Shown here piece after piece: positions 12,748-47,701 of a DNA stretch of 64,000 nt. The stretch is from Leptospirillia bacterium (GTDB taxonomy: Bacteria; Nitrospirota; JACRHL01). Made by a program: the position numbers and the translations under genes. The notes under the pieces are model-generated. The model was not told where the DNA came from. It did no database searches and saw only the letters and a list, made by a program, of their open reading frames with translations. Positions within the stretch are counted from its first letter, which is position 1. Each line of letters starts with the position of its first letter. Location: positions 71,821 to 135,820 of the forward strand of contig JBHHVE010000001.1 of NCBI GenBank assembly GCA_046754085.1. The letters run 5' to 3'.

Positions 12748-12933
12748 CATGCGTTCCCACCGCTGTGGCGGCTGTGCGGGGAGCATGGCTAAATGAATTC
12801 CCCCTTTCCCTTGTCGTTTTGCTTCATTGGGGCTATAACTCGTTACCAACGGGGGGCACAGGGGAACTGAGCCGACCGGATTCGGGCATGCGGCAAATGC
12901 ATGGTCGATGGAGCCAATGGGGAGGGACAGGGC

Positions 12934-14172
12934 ATGGCGGGGCGAGTTCTGGGTGTGTGGTTGCTGTTTGCGGCAGGGCTGTTTTTCGCGCAGCCCGCGG
13001 TAGCCAGGGACTGCGTAGGCTGCCACGAGGCACTCCACCCCGGCATCATCGCCGACTGGAAGGCCAGCCTGCACGCCCAGGTGGGCATCAAGTGTTCCGC
13101 CTGCCACGGCAAGGACCACCGCACCGAAAAAGATGTTGCCGAGGTCAAGCATCCGACCCCCGAGGTGTGCGCCCGCTGCCACCCGGACCGGGCGGAGGAG
13201 TTCAAGCTTGGCAAGCATGCCATCGCCTGGACCGCTATGAAGGCCATGCCCACCACCCATTGGAAGCCCATGGAGATGATCGAGGGGCAGAAGGGGTGCG
13301 GCGGCTGCCACAAAATCGGGGTGAAGTCGGATGCCGAACTGGCCCAGATCAGGGAAGAGGGCAGCGCCGGCGGTGCCTCCTGCGACTCCTGCCACACCCG
13401 CCACCTGTTTTCCCGCAAGGAGGCGCGCCAGCCTCAGGCCTGCCAGACCTGCCATATGGGATTCGATCATCCCCAGTGGGAGATGTATTCCACCTCCAAG
13501 CACGGCGTGCGCTACCTGCTCAAGCAGAACGGCACCCTGCCGGAACACGTTTCCGCCCCCACCTGCCAGACCTGTCATATGGACGAGGGCAATCACGAGG
13601 TTCGCGCTCCGTGGGGTTTTCTGGCGGTGCGCCTGCCGTTGCCGGAGGACCCCCAGTGGCGGGCCGACCAGATCACCCTCCTGCAGGGGTTGGGGGTGCT
13701 TGACCCCGAGGGCAACCCCACCGAGCGGCTGGACGTGGTCAAGGCCGCCGACGTGGCGCGTCTGACCCAGGAGTCGTTCGATGAGGAGCGCAACAGGATG
13801 ATTGCCGTGTGCGCCCGCTGCCACACCGAGCGCTTTGCCAAAAACGAGATGGACAAGGGCGACAAGGTGATCCGCGCCGCCGACCATCTGGTGGCCGAGG
13901 CGATCCGTATCGTGGCTGCGCTCTACAAGGACGGCGTGCTCGCCAAGCCGGAAAGCTACGCCTACCCGTTTCCGGACCTGCTCAGTTTCCACGATGCGCC
14001 GACGCCGATCGAGCACCGCCTGTTCGTGATGTTCCTGAAACACCGTATGCGTACCTTCCAGGGGGCGTTCCACAACAACCCGGATTACACCCTGTGGTAC
14101 GGCTGGAGCGAGCTTCAGACCGATCTGATCGAGATTCGTCACCTGGGCGAGGCACTGCGCAAGGGGGGATAG
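12934..14172 (+). CDS. Octaheme c-type cytochrome, hydroxylamine-oxidoreductase (HAO)/octaheme-nitrite-reductase-like family, paralogue 1
   Basis: Eight CxxCH motifs: CVGCH, CSACH, CARCH, CGGCH, CDSCH, CQTCH, CQTCH, CARCH. A signal peptide follows the ATG at 12934, which has a GGAGGG SD 7 nt upstream. The conserved block CQTCHMGFDHPQWEMYSTSKHG is shared with the paralogue at 15064. The listed ORF starts 33 nt earlier. Confidence 0.75.
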   Translation: MAGRVLGVWLLFAAGLFFAQPAVARDCVGCHEALHPGIIADWKASLHAQVGIKCSACHGKDHRTEKDVAEVKHPTPEVCARCHPDRAEEFKLGKHAIAWTAMKAMPTTHWKPMEMIEGQKGCGGCHKIGVKSDAELAQIREEGSAGGASCDSCHTRHLFSRKEARQPQACQTCHMGFDHPQWEMYSTSKHGVRYLLKQNGTLPEHVSAPTCQTCHMDEGNHEVRAPWGFLAVRLPLPEDPQWRADQITLLQGLGVLDPEGNPTERLDVVKAADVARLTQESFDEERNRMIAVCARCHTERFAKNEMDKGDKVIRAADHLVAEAIRIVAALYKDGVLAKPESYAYPFPDLLSFHDAPTPIEHRLFVMFLKHRMRTFQGAFHNNPDYTLWYGWSELQTDLIEIRHLGEALRKGG

Positions 14173-15063: not shown

Positions 15064-16587
15064 GTGAACATTCAATTGAACGGCCAAGATGGCGGCACGG
15101 TGCAGACCCTTCTGACGGGCGCCGCCCTGACGCTGGCCTTTTTGCTGACCCTGTTGGCGCTGCCGGCCCTGTCGGGAGCGGCGGCTCCGGTGCGCCTGGC
15201 CGAGCTTTCCGTGGAGTCGCAAAACTGCGTGAACTGCCACAAGCAGGACAACGTCAACGTCTACCAGCAGTGGGGCAAGAGCAAGCACTACGGCGCCAAC
15301 ATCGGCTGCTATGAGTGCCACCAGGCCGACAAAAACGACCCGGACGCCTTCAAGCACAGGAAGGGACCGTGGATTTCCACCGTCGTGACCCCCAAGGATT
15401 GCGCCCGTTGCCACGAGAAGGAGGCCCGGGAGTTCGCCGAGAGCCACCACTCCAAGGCGGGCCGCATTTTAGGCTCCCTGGATAACATCCTGGCCGAGGT
15501 GGTGGAGGGCAACCGCGGCTTTGTCACCACCGGCTTTCCGGACGGCGTCTCGGCCGCCGCCGCCAACGGTTGCTGGCAGTGCCACGGCAGCGAGGTCAAG
15601 GTGCTCAAGGATGACAAGGGCAACAATACCGGCAGGCTCGATCCCGCCACCTGGCCCAACAGCGGCATTGGCCGTATCAACCCGGACGGCAGCGAGGGCA
15701 GTTGTTCCGCCTGTCATCAGCGCCACGATTTCTCCCGTGCCCAGGCGCGTCAGCCGGAAAACTGCGGCAAGTGTCACATGGGGCCGGACCATCCGCAGAT
15801 CGAGGTCTACAACGAGTCCAAGCACGGCATCAATTACCACGCCAACAAGGACGAAATGAACCTGGACTCCACCAAGTGGGTGGTGGGCGAGGACTACTTC
15901 GCGGCCCCCACCTGCGCCACCTGTCACATGTCCGCCACCCGGGACATGCCGGTGACCCATAACGTCGGGCTGCGCATCAAGTGGAACAACCGCCCGGTGC
16001 ATTCCAAGCTGGCGCATCTGACTGACAAGAAATGGGGCCTGCCGTCCGCCAGCGTAACCGGTGATGAACGTCGGACCAACATGGAAAACGTGTGCCTGGC
16101 GTGCCATGCCAAACCCTTCACCGATAATTTCTTCACCCAGTATGAGGCGCTGATCGAGCTGTACGACAGCAAGTTCGCAACCCCCGGAGAGGCGCTCTAC
16201 AAGGCCGCCACCGCGGTGCTCAAAAAGGCCGAGGGGGAACGCTACGCCAAGTTCAGTCACAAGATTGACTACACCTGGTTCGAACTGTGGCACCACGAGG
16301 GGCGTCGCGCCCGGCACGCCGCTTCGATGCAGGCGCCGGACTACACCCACTGGCACGGCACCTATGATCTGGCGAAGAATTTCTACTCGGAATACATTCC
16401 CGAGATCAGGGAGATCATCCACGACAATCAGGAAGGCCCGGCAGCCAAGGAGGCGCTGGTGCTTGAGGCCCTGCTGGAAGAGGTGCTGGCGAGCCCGAAC
16501 CATCAGTGGTTCATCGGCGAGGTGTCGGACGAGGAACAGAAGGCCCGCGACAACCGGCGCAAGGAGTTCCTCGAGCGCTACCAGTAG
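15064..16587 (+). CDS. Octaheme c-type cytochrome, HAO/ONR-like family, paralogue 2
   Basis: 507 aa with a signal peptide (TLLTGAALTLAFLLTLLALPALSGAAA). Eight CxxCH motifs: CVNCH, CYECH, CARCH, CWQCH, CSACH, CGKCH, CATCH, CLACH. The CGKCHMGPDHPQIEVYNESKHG block is conserved with paralogue 1. A GAAGGA SD lies upstream. Confidence 0.8.
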   Translation: MNIQLNGQDGGTVQTLLTGAALTLAFLLTLLALPALSGAAAPVRLAELSVESQNCVNCHKQDNVNVYQQWGKSKHYGANIGCYECHQADKNDPDAFKHRKGPWISTVVTPKDCARCHEKEAREFAESHHSKAGRILGSLDNILAEVVEGNRGFVTTGFPDGVSAAAANGCWQCHGSEVKVLKDDKGNNTGRLDPATWPNSGIGRINPDGSEGSCSACHQRHDFSRAQARQPENCGKCHMGPDHPQIEVYNESKHGINYHANKDEMNLDSTKWVVGEDYFAAPTCATCHMSATRDMPVTHNVGLRIKWNNRPVHSKLAHLTDKKWGLPSASVTGDERRTNMENVCLACHAKPFTDNFFTQYEALIELYDSKFATPGEALYKAATAVLKKAEGERYAKFSHKIDYTWFELWHHEGRRARHAASMQAPDYTHWHGTYDLAKNFYSEYIPEIREIIHDNQEGPAAKEALVLEALLEEVLASPNHQWFIGEVSDEEQKARDNRRKEFLERYQ

Positions 16588-16689: not shown

Positions 16690-18228
16690 TCAGGCCAGTT
16701 TGTCGGTGGCCACGAAATAGCTCGGGTCTTCCTGGATGTTCACCTCCACCAGGTCGCCGGCCTTTTCCAGAAGCTGACGGCACTCGGCGCTCAGGTGGCG
16801 CAGGTGGAGGTTCTTGCCGGCGCGTTTGTAGCGTTCGGCCAGGGTGTCGATGGCCTCGATGGCGGAGTGGTCCAGCACCCGTGAGTTGCGAAACTCCACA
16901 ATCACCTTGTCCGGGTCCGCCGCGGGGTGAAACAGCCGGTGAAACTGGTGGATGGAGCCGAAAAACAGCGGCCCGGACAGATCGTACACCTTGGCGCCGT
17001 CCGCGTCCTCGCTGATGGAGACGCCAATCTGCTTGGCGTGTTCCCAGGCGAAGATCAGGGCCGAGGCGATCACCCCCACCAGCACCGCGACCGCAAGGTC
17101 GGTGGCCACGGTGACGCCGGTCACCAGCACGGCGACGAACAGGTCGCCCTGGGGCACCTTGCCGAACAGCCGCAGGGAGGCCCACTCGAAGGTGCCCAGA
17201 ACGACGATGAACATCACCCCCACCAGGGCCGCGATGGGAATCATCTCGATCAGCGGCGAGGCGAACAGAATAAAGCACAAAAGCGCGAGGGCGGCGGTGA
17301 CGCCCGAGGCCCGGCCGAGACCGCCGGAGTGGATGTTGATCATGCTCTGGCCGATCATGGCGCAGCCGCCCATGCCGCCGAACAGGCCGGTGGCGGTGTT
17401 GGCGACCCCCTGGGCCACACACTCCCGGTTGCCCCGTCCACGAGTCTCGGTGATTTCGTCGATCACCCGCATGGTCAGCAGGGACTCGATCAGTCCGATG
17501 GCGGCGAAGATGATCGAATAGGGCAGGATGATCCACAGGGTTTCCAGGGTCATCGGCACCGTGGGGATGTGAAACACGGGCAGGCCGCCGCCGATGGAGG
17601 CCACATCGCCCACCGTGCGGGTATCAAGGCCGAACCCCACCACCAGCAGGGTGAGGGCGACGATGGCCACCAGAGACGACGGCACCTGCCGGGTCAGCCG
17701 GGGGAGGAAGTGGATAATCGCCATGGTCAGCGCCACCAGCCCGAGCATGGTGAGCAGTGGTTCCGTCGCCAACCATTCGCGGCCACCGTCCGCGGTGTGG
17801 ATCTGGAACTGGCTGAGCTGGGCCAGGAAGATGACGATGGCCAGGCCGTTTACGAACCCCAGCATCACCGGGTAGGGCACGATGCGCATGAACTTGCCGA
17901 GCTTCAAAACCCCGGCGCTGATCTGGATGATGCCCATCAGCACCACGGCGGCGAACAGGTACTGGGCGCCATGTTCGGCCACCAGCGCCACCATCACCAC
18001 CGCCAGCGCCCCGGTGGCGCCGGAGATCATGCCGGGGCGGCCACCGATGACGGCGGTGATCAGCCCCACCATGAAGGCGGCGTAAAGTCCGGACAGAGGG
18101 TGGACTCCGGCCACAAAGGCAAACGCCACCGCCTCCGGCACCAGGGCCAGGGCCACGGTCAGGCCTGACAGGATATCGGAGCGCAGGCGGGCGAAGTGGG
18201 TGTGGTAGATATCAAACACGAAAAACAA
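16690..18228 (-). CDS. SulP-family inorganic anion transporter with C-terminal STAS domain
   Basis: 512 aa. The N-terminus LSGLTVALALVPEAVAFAFVAGV is the SulP signature region. Multiple TM segments, then a C-terminal STAS-like domain (KVYDLSGPLFFGS...). Confidence 0.9.
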   Translation of the reverse strand: MFFVFDIYHTHFARLRSDILSGLTVALALVPEAVAFAFVAGVHPLSGLYAAFMVGLITAVIGGRPGMISGATGALAVVMVALVAEHGAQYLFAAVVLMGIIQISAGVLKLGKFMRIVPYPVMLGFVNGLAIVIFLAQLSQFQIHTADGGREWLATEPLLTMLGLVALTMAIIHFLPRLTRQVPSSLVAIVALTLLVVGFGLDTRTVGDVASIGGGLPVFHIPTVPMTLETLWIILPYSIIFAAIGLIESLLTMRVIDEITETRGRGNRECVAQGVANTATGLFGGMGGCAMIGQSMINIHSGGLGRASGVTAALALLCFILFASPLIEMIPIAALVGVMFIVVLGTFEWASLRLFGKVPQGDLFVAVLVTGVTVATDLAVAVLVGVIASALIFAWEHAKQIGVSISEDADGAKVYDLSGPLFFGSIHQFHRLFHPAADPDKVIVEFRNSRVLDHSAIEAIDTLAERYKRAGKNLHLRHLSAECRQLLEKAGDLVEVNIQEDPSYFVATDKLA

Positions 18229-18643
18229 TCCAGGTTAAATGTCGCGTATTCCGGCGTCACACGGACGCAGCCGCACCGAACCGTGGGTGGCAAATCCGCC
18301 GCTCATGCCCAAACCTGTAAGGGAAGTCAGGTATCGCCGCCGCTCCGCCGGACCCGTTGCCGGATACCGCTCTGGAGGGCCTTATTCTAAGGCGGGGCAA
18401 GACCTTGCACAACGGGTCCGGCGGCATTATCGGGCGGTTCGGGGGGCTTGGTGTGGTGGATCATGCCGCCGTAGCCCGGTGCATCCTTCACCATCACGGT
18501 ATTTTCACCCACCGGCTAGACATCCGCGCTTTTCCGTGCCCCCATTCCGCCAACCCTGGCGTTTATGGGTCCGCACGCTAGAATTAAAGTAGAGTTCTCC
18601 GTGCGTTGAGCGCGGCGGGCCGATCGGGAAGGAGGTGGGCGCC

Positions 18644-20893
18644 ATGGCGCGTTTCGGCTGGCTTCCGTGGAAGTTCGTGGTGCGGCGTATTGCCCGTGCC
18701 CACGGCTTTCTGGACCCGATTTCCATCCTCTCCCACCTGCGCCGGTTTACCCAGCCTTCGGAGGTCGCGGAACCGGTGGAGTTGTTGCGCGCCGGAGTGG
18801 TGTTGCATGCCCGCGGGCTGATCAACAGCCGGGTCATCCAGCACAATCTGGACTGGGTCTGGCCCTACTGGGTGGAGCGGCAGTTCGACCCGGAGGGCAA
18901 CGCCTTCGTACCGCGCGCCTTCTCCATCACCCACATCAACCTGACCCATCGCAACTGGACCGCCGTGGGATTGCCGGACGTGGATGCGCTGCCGATCGTG
19001 GATCCGCGCGGTCTGATCACCCCCCATCTGGACGACTGGTCCCTGGACGCCTGGGTGGTGGCCGACGACGGCCGCATACTGCTGCCGTCCCGCGCGGAAC
19101 ACGCCACCCAGCGGCTGGAGATGGATGACGATACGGTGCGGGTGGTGACCGAAACCCGGCTGGACGACCTGTTTCTCAGCGTGGTGGCTCAGGTCAATGA
19201 CGAGGACGGTGCACCGGCGCTTTCCATGGGGGTGAATGCCCGCGCCGCCGGTCCCGCCTGGGTGGTGATCTCCCTCAGGCCCTACAACCCGGAGGGAGTG
19301 CAGTTCATCCACCGGGCCGGGCTTTCGGACGACCGCACGCGCTGGCGGGTGGACGGTGAAACCGCCGTCGATTTCAGCGAACCGGTGGAGCGCCACGTGG
19401 CGTCGTCTTATGCCCACGGTGACGTGCACGCCCGCCTGCATGACCTTTCGGATCGGCACGATCACGGATGCGACGTCGGCATGCTGACTGCGGCGGCCCT
19501 GTTCCGGGTGGAGGCGGGCACCCCACGGCAGGTGACCGCCAGGGTGCCGCTCAGGCTGGAAGATGGCGGTGCGCCCCACGCCGTGCCGTGGGCGCGGGCG
19601 CTGTCCGGCGCCTGCCAGTTGGACGTGCCGGATGCCCGCTTCCAGTTTTTGTATGACGCCGCCCTACGCAGCCTGATTCTGCATTCCCCAGGCGACGTCT
19701 ATCCCGGACCCTACACCTACAAACGCTTCTGGTTCCGGGACGCCGCCTTTATGGTCCATGCCCTGCTGTGCGCCGGGCTGACCGGGCGGGCCGAACGCGC
19801 TCTCGACCGCTTCGCCCCGCGGCAGAAGCGCGACGGCTACTTCCACTCCCAGGACGGCGAGTGGGATTCCAACGGCGAGGCGCTGTGGATCATGGAGCGC
19901 TTCTGCCGCATGACCGGCGCCCCGCCCAAGGCGGCGTGGCGCACCCCCATTCGCCGGGGCGCCGCATGGATCATGGGCAAGCGCCTGCCGGAAGACAGCA
20001 GCGGAACCGCCGGGCTTTTGCCCGCCGGGTTTTCCGCCGAACACCTGGGGCCGAACGACTTTTACTACTGGGACGATTTCTGGGGCGTGGCGGGACTTGC
20101 CGCCGCCGCCCGCATGCATGACGCACTGGGGGATGTGAGCGGTGCTGCGCGCTGGCGGGACGGCGCCGAGGCCCTCTCCGGTTCCATCGATCGCAGTCTG
20201 GCGCGGGCGGCGGAAAGGCTGGGGCGCCCGGCCATGCCGGCGGCGCCCGGTCGCCGCCTCGACGCCGGCGCCATCGGCTCGATCGCGGCGGGTTACCCGC
20301 TACAGCTTTTCCCGGCGGACGATGCGCGCCTGCTGGACCTTGCGGACTACCTGCTGGACGACTGTTTCGTCCGGGGCGGATTTTTCCAGGACATGATCCA
20401 TTCGGGTATCAACCCCTATCTCACCCTGCACATCGCCCAGGTGCTGCTGCGGGCGGGGGACCCCCGTTATCTCGACCTCGTGGAGCGCATGGCGGAGATG
20501 GCCAGCCCCACCGGCCAGTGGCCGGAGGCGATCCACCCGCGCACCGGCGGCGGCTGCATGGGCGACGGCCAGCATGTGTGGGCGGCGGCGGAGTGGCTGA
20601 TCATGGTGCGCAACCTGTTTGTGCGGGAGGAGGACGATGCCCTGATCATTGCCTCCGGCGTACCGCCCCGCTGGCTGGAGGCGGGCGAACCCTTGTGGTT
20701 CGGTCCGGCCCCCACCCTGTTTGGCCCCGTCACGGTCAGCATTGAACGCCATGACAGCGGCGCGCGGGTTGTCTGGCAGGGGGCGTGGCACGGCGCCGCG
20801 CCCCGGGTGGAAATACGCCTGCCGGGGTGTGTCCCGGTGGTTGCGGATCCCGATGCGCGGGAGGCGTTGCTGGAACGGGAGACGGTTACGTGA
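18644..20893 (+). CDS. Glycoside hydrolase family 15-like (glucoamylase/trehalase-type, (alpha/alpha)6 barrel) protein
   Basis: About 750 aa. The GGAAGGAGG SD sits 8 nt upstream of the ATG at 18644; the listed ORF starts at GTG 18635. The C-terminal half has GH15-like six-hairpin motifs: FYYWDDFWG, FFQDMIHSGINPYLT, GQWPEAIHPRTGGG. The family call comes from motif resemblance only. Confidence 0.55.
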   Translation: MARFGWLPWKFVVRRIARAHGFLDPISILSHLRRFTQPSEVAEPVELLRAGVVLHARGLINSRVIQHNLDWVWPYWVERQFDPEGNAFVPRAFSITHINLTHRNWTAVGLPDVDALPIVDPRGLITPHLDDWSLDAWVVADDGRILLPSRAEHATQRLEMDDDTVRVVTETRLDDLFLSVVAQVNDEDGAPALSMGVNARAAGPAWVVISLRPYNPEGVQFIHRAGLSDDRTRWRVDGETAVDFSEPVERHVASSYAHGDVHARLHDLSDRHDHGCDVGMLTAAALFRVEAGTPRQVTARVPLRLEDGGAPHAVPWARALSGACQLDVPDARFQFLYDAALRSLILHSPGDVYPGPYTYKRFWFRDAAFMVHALLCAGLTGRAERALDRFAPRQKRDGYFHSQDGEWDSNGEALWIMERFCRMTGAPPKAAWRTPIRRGAAWIMGKRLPEDSSGTAGLLPAGFSAEHLGPNDFYYWDDFWGVAGLAAAARMHDALGDVSGAARWRDGAEALSGSIDRSLARAAERLGRPAMPAAPGRRLDAGAIGSIAAGYPLQLFPADDARLLDLADYLLDDCFVRGGFFQDMIHSGINPYLTLHIAQVLLRAGDPRYLDLVERMAEMASPTGQWPEAIHPRTGGGCMGDGQHVWAAAEWLIMVRNLFVREEDDALIIASGVPPRWLEAGEPLWFGPAPTLFGPVTVSIERHDSGARVVWQGAWHGAAPRVEIRLPGCVPVVADPDAREALLERETVT

Positions 20894-22197
20894 ACATCCT
20901 CATGGTCACCAATACCTACGCCCCCCACGTGGGGGGCGTGGCGCGCTCGGTTGCGGGTTTTGCCACGGCCTACCGCGCCCGCGGCCACCGGGTGCTGGTG
21001 GTGGCGCCGGTGTTTGAGAACGCCGACGACGCGGAAGATGAGGTCATTCGGGTGCCGGCCCTGCAGAAGGTCAACGGAAGCGATTTTTCCGTGGTGCTGC
21101 CGGTACCCGGTTATCTGGATGCCGCCGTGGGCCGCTTCGCCCCTGATGTGGTGCATGCCCACCATCCGTTCCTGCTGGGAGGCACCGCCATGCGGCTGGC
21201 CCACGGCGGGGGCATCCCGCTGGTGTTCACCCACCACACCATGTACGAGCGCTACACCCATTATGTGCCGGGGGACTGCTCCGCCCTGAAGCGTTTCGTC
21301 ATTCACCTCTCCACCAACTACGCCAACCTGTGCGAGATGGTGTTCGCTCCCAGCGAGAGCATTCGGGACGTACTGCAGGGGCGTGGTGTGCATGTGCCGA
21401 TCCGGGTGGTGCCGACCGGGGTCGATACGGAACGCTTCGGTCAGGGAGACGGTACGGCGTTCCGGCACCGCCTGGGTATTCCGCAGGATGCCTTTGTGGT
21501 GGGGCATGTGGGACGTCTGGCGCCGGAGAAAAACCTGGCGTTTCTGGCCCGCGCCGTATGCCGTTTCCAGACCGGACCCGAGGAGGGTCACACCCAATTT
21601 CTGGTGGCGGGGGAGGGACCGTCGGAGGCGGCCATCCGGCAGGTTGCCGAGGACTTCGGGGTGTCCGGCCGCCTGCATCGGATCGGGGTGCTGAGTCCCC
21701 GGGAACTTGCGGATGCCTACCACGCCATGGACGTATTCGCCTTTGCGTCGGAGAGCGAAACCCAGGGCATGGTACTTACCGAGGCGATGGCCGCCGGTGT
21801 TCCGGTGGTGGCGCTGGACGCCTCCGGGGTGCGCGAGGTGGTGCGGGATGGCGTCAATGGCTATCTGCTGGAACACTCCGACGAAGGTGGTTTTGCCGAT
21901 GCCCTGAACCGGTTCGAACACCTGAATCCGGCGGATCGTGTGGCATTTAAGGATGCTGCCCGTGGTACCGCCGACGCCTTTTCCATGGCCCATTCGGCTA
22001 CCGCCGCCCTGAGCCATTACAGGCACCTTGAATGTCGCCCCGAGCCTGAGCGGCGGGATACGTCCGCAGCCTGGGAGAAGACCGTGCGGCGGATCCGCAC
22101 CGAGTGGGAGATGGTACGGGGGGTCGCCGCCGCCGCCGAGGCGGCCCTGACATCCCGGGAGGAACACGGGAGCGAGGATCATGTTCGCCCGGGTTGA
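20890..22197 (+). CDS. Glycosyltransferase family 4 (GT-B, retaining)
   Basis: The GTG at 20890 overlaps the upstream stop and yields MNILMVTNTYAPHVGGVARSV, a typical GT4 N-terminus. The C-terminal E-x7-E nucleotide-sugar motif is present (FAFASESETQGMVLTEAMAAGVPVVA). The listed ORF starts further upstream at 20785, inside the previous gene. Confidence 0.8.
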   Translation: MNILMVTNTYAPHVGGVARSVAGFATAYRARGHRVLVVAPVFENADDAEDEVIRVPALQKVNGSDFSVVLPVPGYLDAAVGRFAPDVVHAHHPFLLGGTAMRLAHGGGIPLVFTHHTMYERYTHYVPGDCSALKRFVIHLSTNYANLCEMVFAPSESIRDVLQGRGVHVPIRVVPTGVDTERFGQGDGTAFRHRLGIPQDAFVVGHVGRLAPEKNLAFLARAVCRFQTGPEEGHTQFLVAGEGPSEAAIRQVAEDFGVSGRLHRIGVLSPRELADAYHAMDVFAFASESETQGMVLTEAMAAGVPVVALDASGVREVVRDGVNGYLLEHSDEGGFADALNRFEHLNPADRVAFKDAARGTADAFSMAHSATAALSHYRHLECRPEPERRDTSAAWEKTVRRIRTEWEMVRGVAAAAEAALTSREEHGSEDHVRPG

Positions 22198-24643
22198 ACT
22201 ACTGATCCGGCGCGTTCGCAAGCTGTTGAGTCGCAGCGAGTGGGCGGTCCGCCTGCTGCGGCTGCCGGTGGAGACGGAGGCCGCCGCGCTTCCGGGACTG
22301 GTTATGCTACAGATCGACGGGTTGTCCCATGCCGAGTTGATGCGCGCCATCGAAGACGGCGAGATGCCGTTCCTCAAAAAGCTGCTCACCGGCGGGCGTC
22401 ACCGGCTGCACCTGCACTACTCGGGACTGCCGTCCACCACCCCGGCGGTGCAGGGGGAGCTGTTTTACGGGGTGAAGCAGGCGGTTCCGGCGTTCAGCTT
22501 CCGGGATAAAACGGGTCATATCGTGCGCATGTTCGACCGCGCCCCGGCGGCGCGCCTGGAGGCCGAGTTGGCGTCCCGTGGCCGCCCCCTGCTGCAAGGC
22601 GGCAGCGCCTATGTGGACATCTATACCGGCGGTGCCGCCGAGTCCCATTTTTGCCCCTCCGCCCTCGGCTGGGGGGACGTGCTGCGCACCGCCAATCCGT
22701 TTACCCTGGGATTTCTGGTGCTCTCCAACGCCTACAGCTTCGTCCGCACCGCCCTGCTTTTGGTGCTGGAGCTGCTGCTCGCCGTCGTCGATTTCGTGCG
22801 TGGGCTGATCGATGGGCGCGACCTGATCAAGGAACTGAAATTTGTCCCGACCCGGGTGGGCATCTGCATCCTGTTGCGGGAGCTGACCACCATCGGCGTC
22901 AAGATGGACGTGACCCGCGGTCTTCCGGTGGTGCACGCCAACTTCATCGGTTACGACGAACAGGCCCACCGCCGGGGTCCCGGCTCCGCTTTCGCCCACT
23001 GGGCACTCAAGGGCATCGACGACGCCGTCGCACGCATCTGGCGCGCGGCCCATCGCTCCGGGCGGCGGGACTACGACGTGTGGGTTTACTCCGATCACGG
23101 TCAGGAGGAGCTTGTGCCCTACCCGAAACGCTTTAAAAAAAGTGTGCGGCAGGCGGTGAACGAGGTATTTGAGCGTCATACCACCGTTTCCGGGTCCGGC
23201 GATGGCGGTGGTGTGAACGGTATCGGCAGCCAGCGTATCGGCCTGTTCGGCATGGGGAGGATGTTCCGCTGGATGCAGCCCGGACGGGACGAAACGCCGG
23301 TGGGCGATGGCGGCCCCGCGGTGGCGGCGATGGGGCCGTTGGGCATGGTGTACCACCCGGACGGCGCCGACCCCGAACGGCGCGCACTTCTGGCGCGGGC
23401 GCTGGTGATCGAGGCGCACATCCCCATGGTGCTTGTTGCGAACGGCCCCGGAGCGGCCACCGCACATCTGTCGGAAGGGGACTTCGAGTTGCCGGCGCAG
23501 GCGGCTGAGATATTGGGGGCGGAACATCCGTTTCTTGCGGAGGTCACGGACGATCTTGTTTCCCTGTGCCATCACCCGGATGCCGGGGAGTTTGTCATCT
23601 GCGGCTGGTCCCTGCACGGCGAGCGCTTCGATTTCCCCATGGAGAACGGCTCCCACGGCGGTCCCGGAGCCAACGAGACCGCCGCCTTCGCACTGTTGCC
23701 GGACGATACCCCGCTGGCGTCTCTGGACCGGGGCTACCTGCGCCCGGGCGACCTGCGCGCCGCCGCGTTGCGGGTGCTGGAGACACCGGTGATCCGCGCC
23801 CCGGAGGCGGAAGCGCGCGAGCCGGAAACGGAGCGCGGCACGGTGCGTATCATGACCTACAACGTGCATGGCTGCGTTGGCATGGACGGCAAGCATGCCC
23901 CGGAGCGCATTGCGCGGGTGATTGCCCGCCACGCTCCGGACGTGGTGGCCCTGCAGGAACTGGACGAAGGGCGGCCCCGTAGCGGCGGCATGGATCAGGC
24001 CCACCGCATCGCGGCGCTTCTGGAGATGACCTATCACTTCCACCCGGCCATGCACCTCGAAGAGGGACGCTACGGCAACGCGGTATTGACCCACCTGCCC
24101 ATGTTTCCGGTGCGCGCCGACCGGCTGCCCGGGCTTGACGACCGGCCGGGCCTGGAGCCGCGCGGCGCAATCTGGACCGGCATCGACTGGGACGGCACGG
24201 CGTTTCAACTCATCAACACCCATCTGGGACTCAGGGCGCGGGAGCGGCAGGTGCAGGTCAAGGCGCTGTTGGGGGAAGAATGGCTGGGCCATCCCCATTG
24301 CGAATCGCCGGTCATCCTGTGCGGCGATTTCAACGCCCTGCCCGAATCGCGGGTATGCATGGCCCTTGGCCGCCATCTGCATGACGTGCAGGTGGTGGCC
24401 GAGGGCCACCGGCCGCACCGTACCCTGCCGGGGCGTTACCCGATGGCGCGCATCGACCATGTGTTCGTGGACCCGCGTATCGAGGTGACAAACGTCACGG
24501 TGCCTTCCACCGACCTGGAGCGGGTGGCCTCCGATCACCTGCCGCTGATTGTGGATGTGCGCCTGCCCCGGAAGGCGGCCACCGGCCAGGACAATGGGCC
24601 GAAGGACAAAGCCGCCGCCCGCCATGCCGGTACGCCGGGCTAA
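22181..24643 (+). CDS. Two-domain phosphoesterase: N-terminal alkaline-phosphatase-superfamily (type I phosphodiesterase/nucleotide pyrophosphatase-like) domain fused to a C-terminal endonuclease/exonuclease/phosphatase (EEP) domain
   Basis: 820 aa. The N-terminal domain has the GLPSTTP nucleophile motif and the YSDHGQE metal-ligand motif of the AlkP superfamily. The C-terminal domain has TYNVHGCVGMDGK...VVALQELD...INTHL...DHVFVD...SDHLPLIVDV, typical of the EEP fold. Confidence 0.6.
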   Translation: MFARVELLIRRVRKLLSRSEWAVRLLRLPVETEAAALPGLVMLQIDGLSHAELMRAIEDGEMPFLKKLLTGGRHRLHLHYSGLPSTTPAVQGELFYGVKQAVPAFSFRDKTGHIVRMFDRAPAARLEAELASRGRPLLQGGSAYVDIYTGGAAESHFCPSALGWGDVLRTANPFTLGFLVLSNAYSFVRTALLLVLELLLAVVDFVRGLIDGRDLIKELKFVPTRVGICILLRELTTIGVKMDVTRGLPVVHANFIGYDEQAHRRGPGSAFAHWALKGIDDAVARIWRAAHRSGRRDYDVWVYSDHGQEELVPYPKRFKKSVRQAVNEVFERHTTVSGSGDGGGVNGIGSQRIGLFGMGRMFRWMQPGRDETPVGDGGPAVAAMGPLGMVYHPDGADPERRALLARALVIEAHIPMVLVANGPGAATAHLSEGDFELPAQAAEILGAEHPFLAEVTDDLVSLCHHPDAGEFVICGWSLHGERFDFPMENGSHGGPGANETAAFALLPDDTPLASLDRGYLRPGDLRAAALRVLETPVIRAPEAEAREPETERGTVRIMTYNVHGCVGMDGKHAPERIARVIARHAPDVVALQELDEGRPRSGGMDQAHRIAALLEMTYHFHPAMHLEEGRYGNAVLTHLPMFPVRADRLPGLDDRPGLEPRGAIWTGIDWDGTAFQLINTHLGLRARERQVQVKALLGEEWLGHPHCESPVILCGDFNALPESRVCMALGRHLHDVQVVAEGHRPHRTLPGRYPMARIDHVFVDPRIEVTNVTVPSTDLERVASDHLPLIVDVRLPRKAATGQDNGPKDKAAARHAGTPG

Positions 24644-24650
24644 GGCGGCG

Positions 24651-25391
24651 TCAGCCTGGCATCAGCCCTTCTTTCTGGAAGCTGAACACGGCGTCGCTGC
24701 CTACGATCACGTGGTCGAGCAGGGGTACTTCCACGGTATCGAGGGCCTTGAACAGGTGTTCGGTCAGGTGCTGATCGGCGGTGCTCGGGGTGGGGTCGCC
24801 GGACGGGTGATTGTGCACCAGAATGGCGGAGGCGGCCTGATGCCTCAGGGCGGCCTCCACCGCGTGACGCGGGTGCACGTGGGCCTCGGCCACGGTGCCC
24901 GTGGCCAGAAGCGCGGGGAACCGCACCCGGCAGCGGGCATCCAGGCAGAGCAGGAACACCGCCTCCTCCTTACGGCCCGCCATCAGCGGCACCACGTAGT
25001 TCGCCACCGTGTCCGGGTGGTTGAGCAGCGGATCGTCGCGCTCGGTCCGGTCTTTCAAATAGCGTCGGGAAAGGTGCGGCAACAGGGCCAGAAACGCCCC
25101 GCCTTTGGCGCCCATGCCGTCAATGCCGGCGAGGTCCGCGGGATCGGCTTCCAACACCGCCGACAAGCTGCCGAAGCGTTTCAGCAGCCGGTGGGCAATG
25201 GGATTGGTGTTGACTCTGGGCAATACCTGAAACAGCAGCAGTTCCAGCACCTCGTGGTCGGCAAAGCCGTCCAGCCCGGTGCGTTCGGCGCGTTCGCGCA
25301 TGCGATCCCGGTGGCCGTGATGGAGATGGGGCGCGGCACCTGGTGCGTTGGCGGTCTTTTCCATGCCTGTCCCCATCCCGGCTTCGTCCAT
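24651..25391 (-). CDS. radC: RadC-family JAB/MPN-domain protein (UPF0758)
   Basis: The HNHPSGDPTPS JAMM motif is present, and the N-terminal helix-hairpin-helix region (HEVLELLLF...GSLSAVLEADPADLAGIDGMG) is typical of RadC. The listed ORF extends to 25517 with a P/A-rich leader. Internal Met codons at 25391 or 25364 are more plausible starts. Confidence 0.7.
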   Translation of the reverse strand: MDEAGMGTGMEKTANAPGAAPHLHHGHRDRMRERAERTGLDGFADHEVLELLLFQVLPRVNTNPIAHRLLKRFGSLSAVLEADPADLAGIDGMGAKGGAFLALLPHLSRRYLKDRTERDDPLLNHPDTVANYVVPLMAGRKEEAVFLLCLDARCRVRFPALLATGTVAEAHVHPRHAVEAALRHQAASAILVHNHPSGDPTPSTADQHLTEHLFKALDTVEVPLLDHVIVGSDAVFSFQKEGLMPG

Positions 25392-25494
25392 GGCGGCGTT
25401 CCCTGCTATGGTCTGTGGTGCGACATTACCAGTGTAACCGATAGCAGGGGGCGAATCGAAAGTGGCAGGCGGCGGGGCCGGGTCAGATACGCAG

Positions 25495-26424
25495 ATGCCG
25501 GACGGTCCGGTGCTCATTGTCGGCTGCGGCTACGCCGGTAAGGCGGTGGCGCGGCGATTGAGCGCCTGCGGCGTCCCGGTCACAGGTACGGTGACCGGGA
25601 GCGAGGGCGCCGATGCGGTCATCGCATGCGGCGCCACCCCGGAAGTGCTCGACCTGCGGCATGCGCTGGAAGGCAGCGGCCACCGGCTGGCGGCGCTGAT
25701 CGAAAAACATCCATACATCGTTTACGCCGCCGGCCCCAACCGGGTGGGGGATTCGGAAAGGTTCGTCGATTTCAGCGGGGTGTTTGCCGAGCGTGTACGG
25801 CGGGCCGGCAACCCGTCCGCCTTCGTGTACCTGTCTTCCACCGGGGTTTACGGCTACCGGGGCGGCGATTGGGTGGATGAGGACACCCCGCCGGGGGATG
25901 ACCTGGGTCCGCGCGGCATGGTGCGGGTGGCGGCGGAAGCGGCCCTGCTTGCGGCCTGCAAGGAGTGGGGGCTGCCGCTTCGTATCCTGCGCCCGGCAGG
26001 TATCTACGGTCCCGGTCGGCATGTGGGTGCGCGTATCGCCGGGGGCCACTACCGGGTGATCGAGGCCGATCCGCCTATCGTGGTGAACCGCATCCATGTG
26101 GACGACCTGGCGCGGGCCGTCACGGCGGCCCTGGTGCGGGGCACGGACGGTGGCATCTATCTGGTGGCGGACGGCCATCCCACCACCCTGCGGGAGGTGG
26201 CTGACTACGCCGCCGCCCTGATGGGGCTCGATCCCCCCCCCGGTGAACCTGCCGAGGCGGCGCGGGCGCGCATGGGCGAGGCCAATTTTCATCTGGTGTC
26301 GGACAGCAAACGCTGTCGCAACCGCCGCTTGCTGGATGAATTGAGGGTGAAACTGGCCTACCCGGATTACAAAAACGGGCTGAAGCAGGCGATGCAGGTG
26401 GACGGGCTCATTCGTAAAACATGA
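25495..26424 (+). CDS. NAD-dependent epimerase/dehydratase family (SDR) protein
   Basis: From [22 protein letters not shown] the sequence shows a Rossmann GxGxxG-like motif. The listed ORF starts 33 nt upstream at 25462. The stop overlaps the ynfA start (ATGA). Confidence 0.7.
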
Positions 26425-31943: not shown

Positions 31944-32110
31944 TCACCGCTCGTTTGTCGGGCCCGTCATTACGGGCGCATAAACCACCCTGGGCCCGTA
32001 TGTCCCTTGATCCAGAATCATCTTTCATTCCCGTCCCCGGTCCATGCCGAAACCCTGTCTGCGGGGTTGTGGGTCGGGCCATGTTTTAGCGGACCTGCCC
32101 GGCGAGCCGG

Positions 32111-35100
32111 ATGCGTATAGCCGGTCTGGCATTTTTGATCCTGTCGGGCATGGCGGCCCTGACCTATCAGGTGACCTGGGTGCGCCTGCTGGGACTCAGC
32201 ATGGGATCGACCAGCGCCGCCGTGGGTACCGTGCTGGCCGCCTTTTTCCTCGGCATGTCGGGGGGCAGCTACCTTTCCAGATATTTTGTCAGCCCGCGGT
32301 TTCATCGTCTGACGCCCTACATTGCTCTGGAGGTCATGATCGGGCTGTCGGGTCTTGCCCTGCTGCCGATACTGCTGCACCTGGATGGCGTGATGGCGGG
32401 CTTCCCGCTGTTGGGCAAGCTGCTGGTGGTCAAGTTCCTGATCGCCATGGTGCTGCTCTCGATTCCGAGTATCTGCATCGGTGCCACCTTCCCGGTAATG
32501 GCCGGAATTCTCATCGAGCGGGACCACAATATCGGACGGCACTTCGGCCAGCTTTACAGCCTGAATACACTTGGTGCCGTGCTGGGCGCGGGTCTGTCGG
32601 GTTTTGTGCTGATTCCGGCCTTCGGGCTCGACGGCGCCACCTATGTGGCGGTCGCCCTCAACTTTACCATTGTGATCACCGGCGTGCTGCTCATGCGGGA
32701 CGCGGGCGTCCGGGGTGGGGATGTGGAGACGCCGCATGCATCCGATGCACAGGTTGCCGCGCCCTATCAGACGGCGGCGTTCATCGTGCTGTTTTTTTCC
32801 GGGTTTACCGCCATTGCCACGGAGGTCGGCTACACCAAATACGTTGCGATTTTTGCCGGCACCACCATTTACGGGTTCGCCGCGATCCTGACCGTGTTTC
32901 TGGCGGGTATCACCCTGGGGTCGTGGTTGATCAAGTCGATGATCGATCGCATCCGGCAGCCCCAGGTATGGATGGCTTACGGTCTGGTGCTGTTGGGTTT
33001 CAGCCTGGTGTTGACCCGATCGAACCTCAACCTGCTGCCGCCGCTCAGCGGCATGCTCGGCGCCATGGATGTGTCCGACATGGCTATCCGGTGGATCAAG
33101 TACGGCGCAATATTCCTGATTCTGCTGCCCCCCACGCTCCTGTTCGGGGCGCTGTTTCCCCTCAACCTGCGGCTCTACTGCGGCGACGTGGCCCGCATGC
33201 GTACCCGGGTGGGGCAGGGGTACGCCATCAACACGCTGGGCAGCATTCTGGGTTCCCTGTTCGCCGGGTTTTTCATCATCCCCCGGTTTGGCACCGACAC
33301 GCTGCTGGGTCTCATGGCAGGTGTTCTGATCGTCCTGGGCTTGCTGTTCCTGCCGCATATGGGCACCCCCCGCGCCCGGTTCGCGCTGCTGGGCGCGACG
33401 GCGCTGGCGCTGGCCGGGTTCGTGCTGTTGCCTGCGCTCAAGTTTGAAAAGGTGGTGGCCACGGCGTTGAAGGTGCACCCGGATGCAGTGGTGTTTCTCA
33501 AGGAGGGCAAGACCGCGGTTATCAGCCTGAGCCGCACCCCCCTGCCCCGGCTCACGCTGGCCAGCAACGGCTTGCAGGAATCCTCCGTCAACATCCAGAA
33601 CCCGACCCGGGGTCCCGCCGGAGCGGTGGTGCTGGGGGCCTTTCCCTACCTGTTTCACCCGGATGCCGAGACGGCGTTTCTGATCGGGTTTGGTGGTGGT
33701 ATCACCACTCACGTCATGACCACCACCGGGCTTTCCGTGATACGCGTGGTGGAGTTGGAGCCCGTGGTGATCGAGGCGGTGGAAAGCCTGCACGGGGGGA
33801 AGGTTCCTGCCTTTTCGGACCCTCGGGTGCGGCTTGACATCAACGATGCCCGCCACACCCTCCTGATGGAGGATGAACGGTACGATCTCATTATTTCCCA
33901 GCCGTCGCATCCGTGGGTGGCGGGCATGGCCAATCTCTTTACCCGGGAGTTTTACCAGTTGGCGGCGTCTCGTCTGAATGATGGGGGAATCTTTAACCAG
34001 TGGATCAACCTGTACCACATGGACGCAGAGACCCTGGGCATCCTGGTTCGCACGTTTTATGAGGTGTTTCCCCACGGCATCGTGCTGGGGGACAACCTGG
34101 GCATGCTGTCCAGCTGGGTGGTGCCGGGTGAGCGCGTGGAATCACGGGGGGACGGCTCGCTGTACCTGCTCGGCTCCAACCGCCCGATCGGGTTTGATGC
34201 GGCCGGTGTCGGCCGGCGACTGGCGGGCATGACGGAGAACGATGCCGCCATCGGCCAATTGTGGCAGACCCCCGAAATGCTGTTTGCAAGCTACCTGTTC
34301 TCCCGGGAGGAGGCGCTGGCGCTCAGCCGGATGCCGGACGTGAACACCGACGCCAACCTTCTGTCCGAGGTGCGTCTGGCCGCACTGGAAAAAACACCGA
34401 CCGGCGACCGGGATCCGGTTCGGGGAATTCTGAACCGGCTTGAGTTCGACCTTGTGCCGTACCTGGGCGCGGACACGGCCCGCTTCCTCAGTCAGTTTGG
34501 CGAGCGCTTCCTGGCCAACGACCAGTTGAAAATGGCGGAACGGGTCGAGATGGCCCTTGAGGAGATCGACCCGCAGCGAGGCCGCTGGCTCCGGCATGCG
34601 CGCCTGACGGCGGCATACGATTTTCCCCAGTCCATGCCGCTTTACCAGGCGCACCAGGACTGGCCCGCCGCCAACCGCTACGCTCAGGCCGTGGCCTTTA
34701 TGGACTTGGGACGGCTTGCCGATGCGGCCGCGGTGGTGAAGGACATGGGTGACCCGGCACTGGGGCGGCTGGCGCTGGCGCGGCTGCTGTTCGAGAGGGG
34801 CGCGTTTGCGAGGCTTGCGGCCATTAAACCCGCCTCGGTGGCGGAATGGCGCTGGCAACTGGTGGGTATGGCGCGGCAAAAACCGGCTCTTGCAGCGCGC
34901 GGATTAGCCCGGGTGGCCGAGGCCGACCCGGCATCCCTCGAAATCCCTCAATTACAGACACTGGTCCAGCTACAACGAGCCTACCCCAAGGCAGTTCCGC
35001 CCGCAGTCGACGCCGGGCGTCTGCTGCGGGCGCGGATCAATCAGGAGGTGTTGTCCCTCAGCGGCCTGCTTGAGGAGGCCACCCGGTCGGGAAACCAGGC

Positions 35101-35152
35101 CCATGCCCGGGTGCTGCTGGGGCGGATCAGGCAGATGCGCAAAATCCGCTGA
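32111..35152 (+). CDS. Fused MFS-like membrane domain / spermidine-synthase-like (polyamine aminopropyltransferase fold) / TPR-like C-terminal protein
   Basis: 1013 aa. About 12 N-terminal TM helices. The central domain has FLIGFGGGITTHVM...VVELEPVVIEAV...DARHTLLMEDERYDLIISQPSHPW, a spermidine-synthase/SAM-MTase-like fold. The helical C-terminal region is repeat-rich. Confidence 0.7.
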   Translation: MRIAGLAFLILSGMAALTYQVTWVRLLGLSMGSTSAAVGTVLAAFFLGMSGGSYLSRYFVSPRFHRLTPYIALEVMIGLSGLALLPILLHLDGVMAGFPLLGKLLVVKFLIAMVLLSIPSICIGATFPVMAGILIERDHNIGRHFGQLYSLNTLGAVLGAGLSGFVLIPAFGLDGATYVAVALNFTIVITGVLLMRDAGVRGGDVETPHASDAQVAAPYQTAAFIVLFFSGFTAIATEVGYTKYVAIFAGTTIYGFAAILTVFLAGITLGSWLIKSMIDRIRQPQVWMAYGLVLLGFSLVLTRSNLNLLPPLSGMLGAMDVSDMAIRWIKYGAIFLILLPPTLLFGALFPLNLRLYCGDVARMRTRVGQGYAINTLGSILGSLFAGFFIIPRFGTDTLLGLMAGVLIVLGLLFLPHMGTPRARFALLGATALALAGFVLLPALKFEKVVATALKVHPDAVVFLKEGKTAVISLSRTPLPRLTLASNGLQESSVNIQNPTRGPAGAVVLGAFPYLFHPDAETAFLIGFGGGITTHVMTTTGLSVIRVVELEPVVIEAVESLHGGKVPAFSDPRVRLDINDARHTLLMEDERYDLIISQPSHPWVAGMANLFTREFYQLAASRLNDGGIFNQWINLYHMDAETLGILVRTFYEVFPHGIVLGDNLGMLSSWVVPGERVESRGDGSLYLLGSNRPIGFDAAGVGRRLAGMTENDAAIGQLWQTPEMLFASYLFSREEALALSRMPDVNTDANLLSEVRLAALEKTPTGDRDPVRGILNRLEFDLVPYLGADTARFLSQFGERFLANDQLKMAERVEMALEEIDPQRGRWLRHARLTAAYDFPQSMPLYQAHQDWPAANRYAQAVAFMDLGRLADAAAVVKDMGDPALGRLALARLLFERGAFARLAAIKPASVAEWRWQLVGMARQKPALAARGLARVAEADPASLEIPQLQTLVQLQRAYPKAVPPAVDAGRLLRARINQEVLSLSGLLEEATRSGNQAHARVLLGRIRQMRKIR

Positions 35153-47622: not shown

Positions 47623-47701
47623 AGCCGCAGGCCCCACGCGCCCGCCGGAGGGAACCGGTGGGCCGGGCCGTGGATGTTAAGGAACGGGAAAGGAGTCCAC
47701 A

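Follow-up and report, generated by a model that had tools for sequence, protein, structure and literature searches.

A window of 64,000 nucleotides from a Leptospirillia bacterium (Nitrospirota; GenBank assembly GCA_046754085.1, contig JBHHVE010000001.1, positions 71,821 to 135,820 of the forward strand) contains three overlapping genes, here called A, B and C, which encode a glycosidase-like protein, a GT4 glycosyltransferase and a double phosphoesterase, respectively. We tentatively propose, as a possible reading that stops short of being a probable one, that this cluster, usually headed in other genomes by a fourth gene for a VTT/DedA membrane protein, makes and recycles an α-glycosylated membrane lipid, most likely α-glucosyl-diacylglycerol. 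The open reading frames (ORFs) and their translations place all three genes on the + strand with overlapping junctions. Gene A (18644..20893, +, 749 aa) starts with an ATG that has a GGAGG 8 nt upstream; gene B (20890..22197, +, 435 aa) starts with the GTG of a GTGA, the 4 nt of which it shares with the end of A; and gene C (22181..24643, +, 820 aa) starts with an ATG in a 17-nt overlap with B. The G+C content at third codon positions is 0.75-0.84 across the three genes, and an independent gene call on the public contig of a Leptospirillia bacterium metagenome-assembled genome (MAG; L083) gave the same products of 749, 435 and 820 aa with identical overlaps. A, B and C are a genuine co-directional operon.

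B matches PF13439 (Glyco_transf_4, 119 bits) and PF00534 (Glycos_transf_1, 112 bits) and holds the EX7E motif as E290-x7-E298 (nt 21757-21783), so that it is unambiguously predicted to be a retaining GT4 enzyme with the domains of the GT-B fold. Among the 42 NCBIfam families that it matches, the top one is NF049988, α-monoglucosyl-diacylglycerol synthase (E 9e-41, profile positions 1-349 of 398). The same family comes first for the GT4 enzymes linked to A in two other loci (L088 and L081), over nearly the whole profile with E values of 1e-41 to 1e-48, the next family trailing by some 10 orders of magnitude. Several orthologues of B are named 1,2-diacylglycerol 3-alpha-glucosyltransferase by the JGI pipeline. 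The solved structures nearest to B, among 34 GT4 chains matched at E <= 1e-5, are those of MshA (the closest), PimB' and BshA, PimA being also among its solved relatives. TreT structures are present in the PDB; no trehalose synthase is found among these 34 chains, and no TreT family among the best 25 of the 42 NCBIfam matches.

Protein A matches no Pfam family. Only one of 33 orthologues matched PF00723 (E 0.12), the other 32 being without any Pfam family, and the matches of A to TIGR01577 (E 9e-4, 18 bits versus a cutoff of 820) and TIGR01535 (15.8 bits versus a cutoff of 742) are of the same faint kind, yet they agree in pointing to GH15. The AlphaFold (AF2) model of A (predicted local distance difference test, pLDDT, 78.6; predicted template modelling score 0.84) has a fold nearest to that of GH15 α-glucoside hydrolases, and 505 residues, the N-domain included, align to the bacterial glucoamylase 1lf6 in a structure comparison. 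Along the + strand the model comprises a helical, highly conserved N-terminal region of about 100 aa with low model confidence (18644..18949; pLDDT < 50 for residues 27-102), a β-sandwich domain (residues ~105-330, 18956..19633), an (α/α)6 barrel with the invariant motifs FWFRD, YYWDD and WPE (residues ~331-660, 19634..20623) and a C-terminal β domain (residues ~661-749, 20624..20890). A cationic amphipathic segment rich in Trp and Phe spans residues 1-18 (hydrophobic moment 0.56, net charge +5), and the N-terminal region, with invariant columns from P8 to P83, is kept even in a subfamily of only 39% identity.

A single-sequence search of PDB chains with A gave no match, and the best hit of the family profile is the GH15 dextran dextrinase 9ju0, at an E value of only 0.0065. 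In this alignment FWFRD (R365, D366; 19727-19741, +) stands opposite the WxRD substrate-binding motif of GH15. YYWDD (D477, D478; 20063-20077, +), aligned with GH15 W-[E/D]-D, stands opposite the W-E-D segment of 9ju0, which we take to be the GH15 general-acid motif; the acid position is Asp477, not Glu. E628 of the invariant WPE motif (20519-20527, +) is a candidate general base and may be the equivalent of that of GH15. These features suggest that A is a catalytically plausible, probably inverting α-glycosidase of the clan GH-L type, and it belongs to a family of its own, distinct from canonical GH15, for which Pfam has no model. The family is large: a homologue search returned more than 4700 proteins of ~750 aa with 57-72% identity, spread over Gamma-, Alpha- and Deltaproteobacteria, Nitrospinota, Nitrospirae and other groups. 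Almost every one is named hypothetical, and a few bear automated names (glucoamylase, for example). When the family profile was run against 1.84 billion cluster representatives, 3378 clusters (50% identity) matched at E <= 1e-3, 727 of them at E <= 1e-30.

Protein C is predicted to be a bifunctional phosphoesterase in which a domain of the alkaline phosphatase (AP) superfamily, of the NPP type (PF01663, Phosphodiest, 41.6 bits, cutoff 23; residues ~37-510, 22289..23710, +), is fused to an EEP domain (PF03372, Exo_endo_phos, 81.7 bits, cutoff 24.5; residues ~555-795, 23843..24565, +). Both domains hold complete catalytic residue sets: the invariant D46, T87, D259, H263, D305, H306 and H492 correspond to the metal ligands and the Thr nucleophile of NPPs, and the likewise invariant N561, E593, D716, N718, D785 and H786 form the catalytic set of the EEP fold. 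A helical hairpin (residues ~165-246, 22673..22918, +; model helices 173-246) is inserted in the NPP domain, and its core of 36 residues (177-212) is hydrophobic, with a Kyte-Doolittle maximum of 2.34; we presume it to be a monotopic membrane anchor. Lipid phosphodiesterases (ENPP6, the alkaline sphingomyelinase ENPP7 and neutral sphingomyelinase 2) are among the top structural neighbours of the two domains. More than 2500 proteins share the conserved NPP-hairpin-EEP fusion, and their names are only generic. Signal peptides and classical transmembrane topology are both absent from A, B and C, which therefore all act in the cytoplasm; the N-termini of A and C are both cationic and amphipathic.

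The original prediction, made from the window alone, of three co-directional genes with overlapping junctions, the second encoding a retaining GT4 glycosyltransferase and the third an 820-aa fusion of AP-superfamily and EEP domains, is borne out by the gene calls, by the Pfam and EX7E matches of B and by the two Pfam matches of C above their cutoffs. For the GH15-type hydrolase proposed for the first gene, the (α/α)6 fold is borne out and a canonical GH15 is not, PF00723 being unmatched; the WxRD motif is conserved as FWFRD, with Asp and not Glu at the acid position.

The three genes travel together. At least 592 loci with relatives of A were found with one genome per species, and 80 of these were fetched. 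Of 78 loci, 66 have B next to A; of the 69 with enough flank, 51 have C downstream; and in 56 of 74 a VTT/DedA gene (PF09335; V in the architectures below) directly precedes A, often with an overlap at the start of A. This adjacency of A, B and C is far beyond chance. Architectures were counted in 62 informative loci from Gamma-, Alpha- and Deltaproteobacteria, Nitrospinota, Nitrospirae, Omnitrophota and Pirellulales. The usual form is VABC (35/62), followed by VA-- (10/62, all Marinobacter), -ABC (8/62, the form of this window), -AB- (5/62), VAB- (2/62), -A-C (1/62) and VA-C (1/62). The triad is thus present in 43 of the 62 loci and in several phyla, as expected under the original prediction, which had named its joint conservation as a test. 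No further gene family recurs in the flanks, according to an all-against-all clustering of the flanking ORFs of 82 loci, and the module is therefore self-contained and set in variable neighbourhoods.

In the ten Marinobacter loci (L012, L022, L030, L034, L044, L058, L062, L068, L071 and L077) VTT-A is followed by EamA transporter genes, and B and C are absent within 8 kb. The distant subfamily of A with 39% identity, in which every motif including the N-terminal region is kept, adjoins a divergently transcribed GT4 gene, the product of which has 42% identity to B, and neither C nor VTT is present there; since so remote an A is still paired with a GT4, the A-GT4 link is the oldest and tightest. 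A locus of Omnitrophota (L081, MAG JABDFL010000015.1, 5959-15648) holds a co-directional series of genes for a patatin lipase, A, an acyl carrier protein with a PlsC-type acyltransferase, a GT4, an α/β hydrolase, a methyltransferase and a type III polyketide synthase. This series is, by its predicted products, a lipid-biosynthetic context for A and a B-like GT4, and it may serve to make a glycosylated phenolic or acyl lipid with the participation of the A family.

A replacement of C was sought in the A-B loci without it; the genes next to A-B there encode unrelated proteins, among them Hsp20, glycogen phosphorylase and FtsH, and provide no alternative phosphoesterase. One of these loci, in a Thiotrichales MAG (L069), has a glycogen/maltodextrin phosphorylase (PF00343; 11739-14204, -) as the next gene, a single case that might hint at an α-glucan link. 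A VTT gene or a remnant of one was searched for in the window and none was found: weak matches at 2408-2683 fall within an asparagine synthase gene and are chance matches.

From the family and fold assignments, the intact catalytic residues and the gene linkage we infer a substrate and a series of reactions at the cytoplasmic face of the inner membrane. C, held at the membrane by its hydrophobic hairpin, would cleave the head group of a phospholipid with one of its phosphoesterase domains in the manner of a phospholipase C, releasing diacylglycerol, and would hydrolyze the freed phospho-head group with the other. B would move a sugar from a UDP-sugar onto the diacylglycerol, and A, putatively inverting and with a cationic amphipathic N-terminus, would take it off again, so that the cell could set or reverse its glycolipid level. 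The VTT/DedA protein, where present, might redistribute the lipid across the bilayer. Such a glycolipid cycle is the most economical model because an Mgs-like GT4 is persistently paired with the α-glycosidase-like A, usually together with C and VTT, and the GH15-like α-glucoside hydrolase fold of A matches the α-linkage expected from a retaining GT4.

Several observations weigh against the glycolipid cycle. The match of B to NF049988 scores 140.6 bits against an equivalog cutoff of 400, B lies below every equivalog cutoff, and for the B of this window MshA and GlcN-PG synthase score nearly as well. We know of no GH15-like enzyme that hydrolyzes a glycoglycerolipid. The EEP domain of C has uncharacterized proteins, Tdp2 and nocturnin as its best neighbours, and a sugar phosphatase is among the members of its family. 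No other component of the module is as conserved or as widely retained as A (found with VTT alone in Marinobacter and with a GT4 alone in the distant subfamily), and for this reason A fits poorly as a mere recycling accessory. The VTT gene is absent from this window. Pho boxes, scored with the E. coli-type consensus, from which those of the carrier taxa may differ, show no enrichment ahead of the VTT gene that heads the cluster (46 loci; mean best score 9.0 versus 8.8 in random windows, of 14), which leaves phosphate-starvation control, typical of lipid renovation, unsupported. Footprinting of the Marinobacter and Microbulbifer upstream regions gave only short, genus-specific conserved blocks and no recognizable regulator site.

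A different product of the same three enzymes would be a soluble α-glucoside of the compatible-solute type: B would join a UDP-sugar to a phosphorylated acceptor, C would dephosphorylate the product and A would hydrolyze the final glycoside. Synthase, phosphatase and hydrolase are the classic logic of the sucrose, trehalose, glucosylglycerol and glucosylglycerate pathways, MshA uses a phosphorylated acceptor, the EEP family includes the mannose-6-phosphatase 4c1r, and the distant A-GT4 pair stands without a membrane partner. Marine or halophilic groups are numerous among the carriers (Marinobacter, Microbulbifer, Thiohalophilus, Methylohalobius, Nitrospinota); however, non-halophilic ones such as Thiobacillus, Methylobacter and Azoarcus carry the genes too. 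A sugar-phosphate phosphatase would need neither the two complete phosphoesterase sites of C nor its hydrophobic hairpin, a membrane-protein gene usually heads the cluster, and the genes around A in the Omnitrophota locus are of the lipid kind. Moreover, the diacylglycerol glucosyltransferase model is the best family in three divergent GT4s, whereas sucrose-phosphate synthase scores far lower in those of L088 and L081 and is not among the 25 best families of B. We consider a solute cycle unlikely, and the analogy to a TreT-type synthase with a trehalase, with which the original prediction had framed the cluster, is not favoured by the family of B, the hairpin of C, the Omnitrophota cluster or the usual VTT/DedA head, which the window alone could not reveal.

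The sugar could also be placed on the head group of a phospholipid, for instance phosphatidylglycerol or phosphatidylinositol, with B acting like GlcN-PG synthase, PimA or PIG-A, C cleaving or remodelling the phosphodiester and A trimming the sugar. GlcN-PG synthase (NF053787) matches B over its full length (E 2e-34), PimB' and PimA are solved relatives, two phosphodiesterase-type domains suit a phosphodiester lipid, and the EEP domain of C weakly matches the EEP model of PGAP2IP, which acts in the lipid remodelling of glycosylphosphatidylinositol and is the family recorded for most C homologues. We nevertheless regard this as distinctly unlikely, given that NF049988 outscores GlcN-PG synthase by 6-16 orders of magnitude in all three GT4s tested and that no gene for the supply of inositol or another head group is linked. 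An envelope polymer, with VTT/DedA flipping undecaprenyl-phosphate, B building a lipid-linked or teichoic-acid-like glycan and A and C recycling the carrier, would suit the role of polyprenyl-phosphate transporters proposed for DedA-family proteins in a preprint (bioRxiv 10.1101/2022.02.03.479048), as well as the weak matches of B to TarM, TuaC and exopolysaccharide glycosyltransferases. These polysaccharide-type matches are much weaker than that to Mgs, A, B and C are cytoplasmic, and the 82 loci have no linked gene for Wzx/Wzy, an initiating phosphoglycosyltransferase or polymer export, all of which makes a polymer very improbable. A role in phage defence or conflict, with the GT4 and nucleases as its core, is effectively excluded: EEP and AP-superfamily domains do occur in some defence systems and B matches the Pfam GT4-conflict model (35.9 bits), but this is one of eight overlapping GT4 models and far from the best, a PADLOC search of A, B and C gave zero matches, and the conservation of A across phyla in stable, single-copy synteny is unlike that of defence islands. 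Among these readings we place the glycolipid cycle first.

Upstream of A, across an intergenic region of 415 bp (18229..18643) that is presumed to hold the promoter and the 5' region, lies a divergent SulP/STAS transporter gene, and downstream of C, 7 bp past its stop, lies a convergent RadC gene; with these two orientations the transcription unit is limited to exactly A, B and C. A promoter and terminator scan detected no sigma-70-like promoter or terminator around the three genes, an Rfam search that included the 415-nt leader matched zero families, and the folding of the leader (z-score -1.8) is not significant. The G+C content of 18001-26000, which covers the three genes and their close neighbours, is 0.666-0.675 versus 0.61-0.65 in the flanks, a weak indication that would be compatible with horizontal acquisition of the cluster.

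Further from the cluster, two genes for multihaem c-type cytochromes, with Multi-haem_cyto and MtrC/MtrF-like domains, lie just upstream of the SulP gene (12901-14172 and 15064-16587, both +) and suggest that this Leptospirillia MAG carries out electron transfer in the periplasm or outside the cell. The segment 1103-11490 (-) holds polysaccharide- or capsule-type genes (asparagine synthase-like amidotransferase, FkbM methyltransferase, carbamoyltransferase, Wzi and Wzz/GNVR), which are not conserved beside A-B-C in other genomes. A 1020-aa protein encoded at 32090-35152 (+) has a spermine/spermidine synthase domain as its sole Pfam match (residues 515-637). The gene at 47681-50287 (+) encodes an MMPL/RND-type transporter with a sterol-sensing-domain match and is possibly a lipid (hopanoid-type) exporter. 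A giant ORF (51762-63998, +) runs past the end of the window, encoding at least 4079 aa that consist nearly entirely of Calx-beta repeats (at least 15 stretches, 812 bits), and exactly at its start, at ~52 kb, the GC skew flips sign from positive to about -0.08.

No paper describing this gene combination was found in a full-text literature search, the coverage of which left subscription journals and supplements aside, and the cluster is apparently uncharacterized. Each of the proteins falls in a known superfamily and none is categorically new. The A family comprises thousands of genes with fixed partners, so that one experiment could annotate thousands. Were the glycolipid cycle to prove true, many marine and sediment Proteobacteria, Nitrospinota and their relatives would have a second phosphorus-free lipid route, non-homologous to the PlcP-Agt system in its phosphoesterase and equipped with its own reverse step and a partner from the DedA family; VTT/DedA (TVP38/TMEM64-type) proteins, which are poorly understood, would get a concrete lipid context; and A would define a new glycoside hydrolase family. 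The boldest form of this proposal, in which VTT/DedA-A-B-C is an undescribed, widespread Gram-negative module for the reversible conversion of phospholipid to glycolipid, with A as the founder of a new clan GH-L family and the first cytoplasmic glycoglycerolipid glycosidase, and the DedA-type protein as a dedicated scramblase, is in our view unlikely. A soluble glucoside, on the other hand, would mean a new pathway for an osmolyte, in which the phosphatase is, unusually, bound to the membrane.

Each component can be set against its characterized relatives. With GH15 (glucoamylase, glucodextranase, dextran dextrinase and trehalases; clan GH-L) A has in common the (α/α)6 barrel preceded by a β-sandwich. 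It differs in the lack of a PF00723 match, in Asp477 instead of Glu at the acid position, in the additional conserved N-terminal region of 100 residues and in a C-terminal β domain that resembles the GH65/GH78 layout, and its identity to any solved structure is only ~15%. C is 14-20% identical to the NPP lipid phosphodiesterases (ENPP6, a lysophospholipase C, and ENPP7) and to the bacterial Xac NPP, from which it differs in being cytoplasmic instead of secreted, in the helical hairpin insertion of 80 residues and in the EEP fusion. Its EEP domain shares the fold and the N, E, D, N, D, H set with EEP phosphodiesterases such as neutral sphingomyelinases and the mannose-6-phosphatase BT3783; the nearest structures are uncharacterized bacterial EEPs (4ruw, 3l1w and 3g6s), so that homology assigns no substrate class to this domain. 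Mgs/BgsB (GT4, EC 2.4.1.337; NF049988) is the best curated family for B and for the two distant A-linked GT4s, although these score 141-166 bits where the equivalog cutoff is 400. Characterized Mgs/BgsB members come from Mollicutes and Firmicutes, and their genes are not known to be linked to GH15-like or NPP-EEP genes.

As a system, the module is closest in its proposed logic to PlcP-Agt lipid renovation, in which the gene of a phospholipid-cleaving phosphoesterase likewise stands beside that of a glycosyltransferase, which turns the freed diacylglycerol into a phosphorus-free glycolipid. PlcP-Agt is known in Sinorhizobium, Phaeobacter, SAR11 and Pseudomonas aeruginosa (PA3219/PA3218/PA0842) (PMC4796936, PMC8528852) and has a Pho box (PMC8528852). 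A fitness study of Desulfovibrio alaskensis under phosphate limitation (PMC5193443) concerns an Agt homologue, not the A-B-C cluster. PlcP is described as a phospholipase C of the metallophosphoesterase type, whereas C is an NPP and EEP fusion without a metallophosphoesterase domain, and no metallophosphoesterase gene recurs in the 82 A loci. PlcP-Agt has no glycosidase or VTT partner, in contrast to the module described here, which has both. On this comparison, the VTT/DedA-A-B-C module would be functionally analogous to PlcP-Agt, with a phosphoesterase that is not homologous to PlcP.

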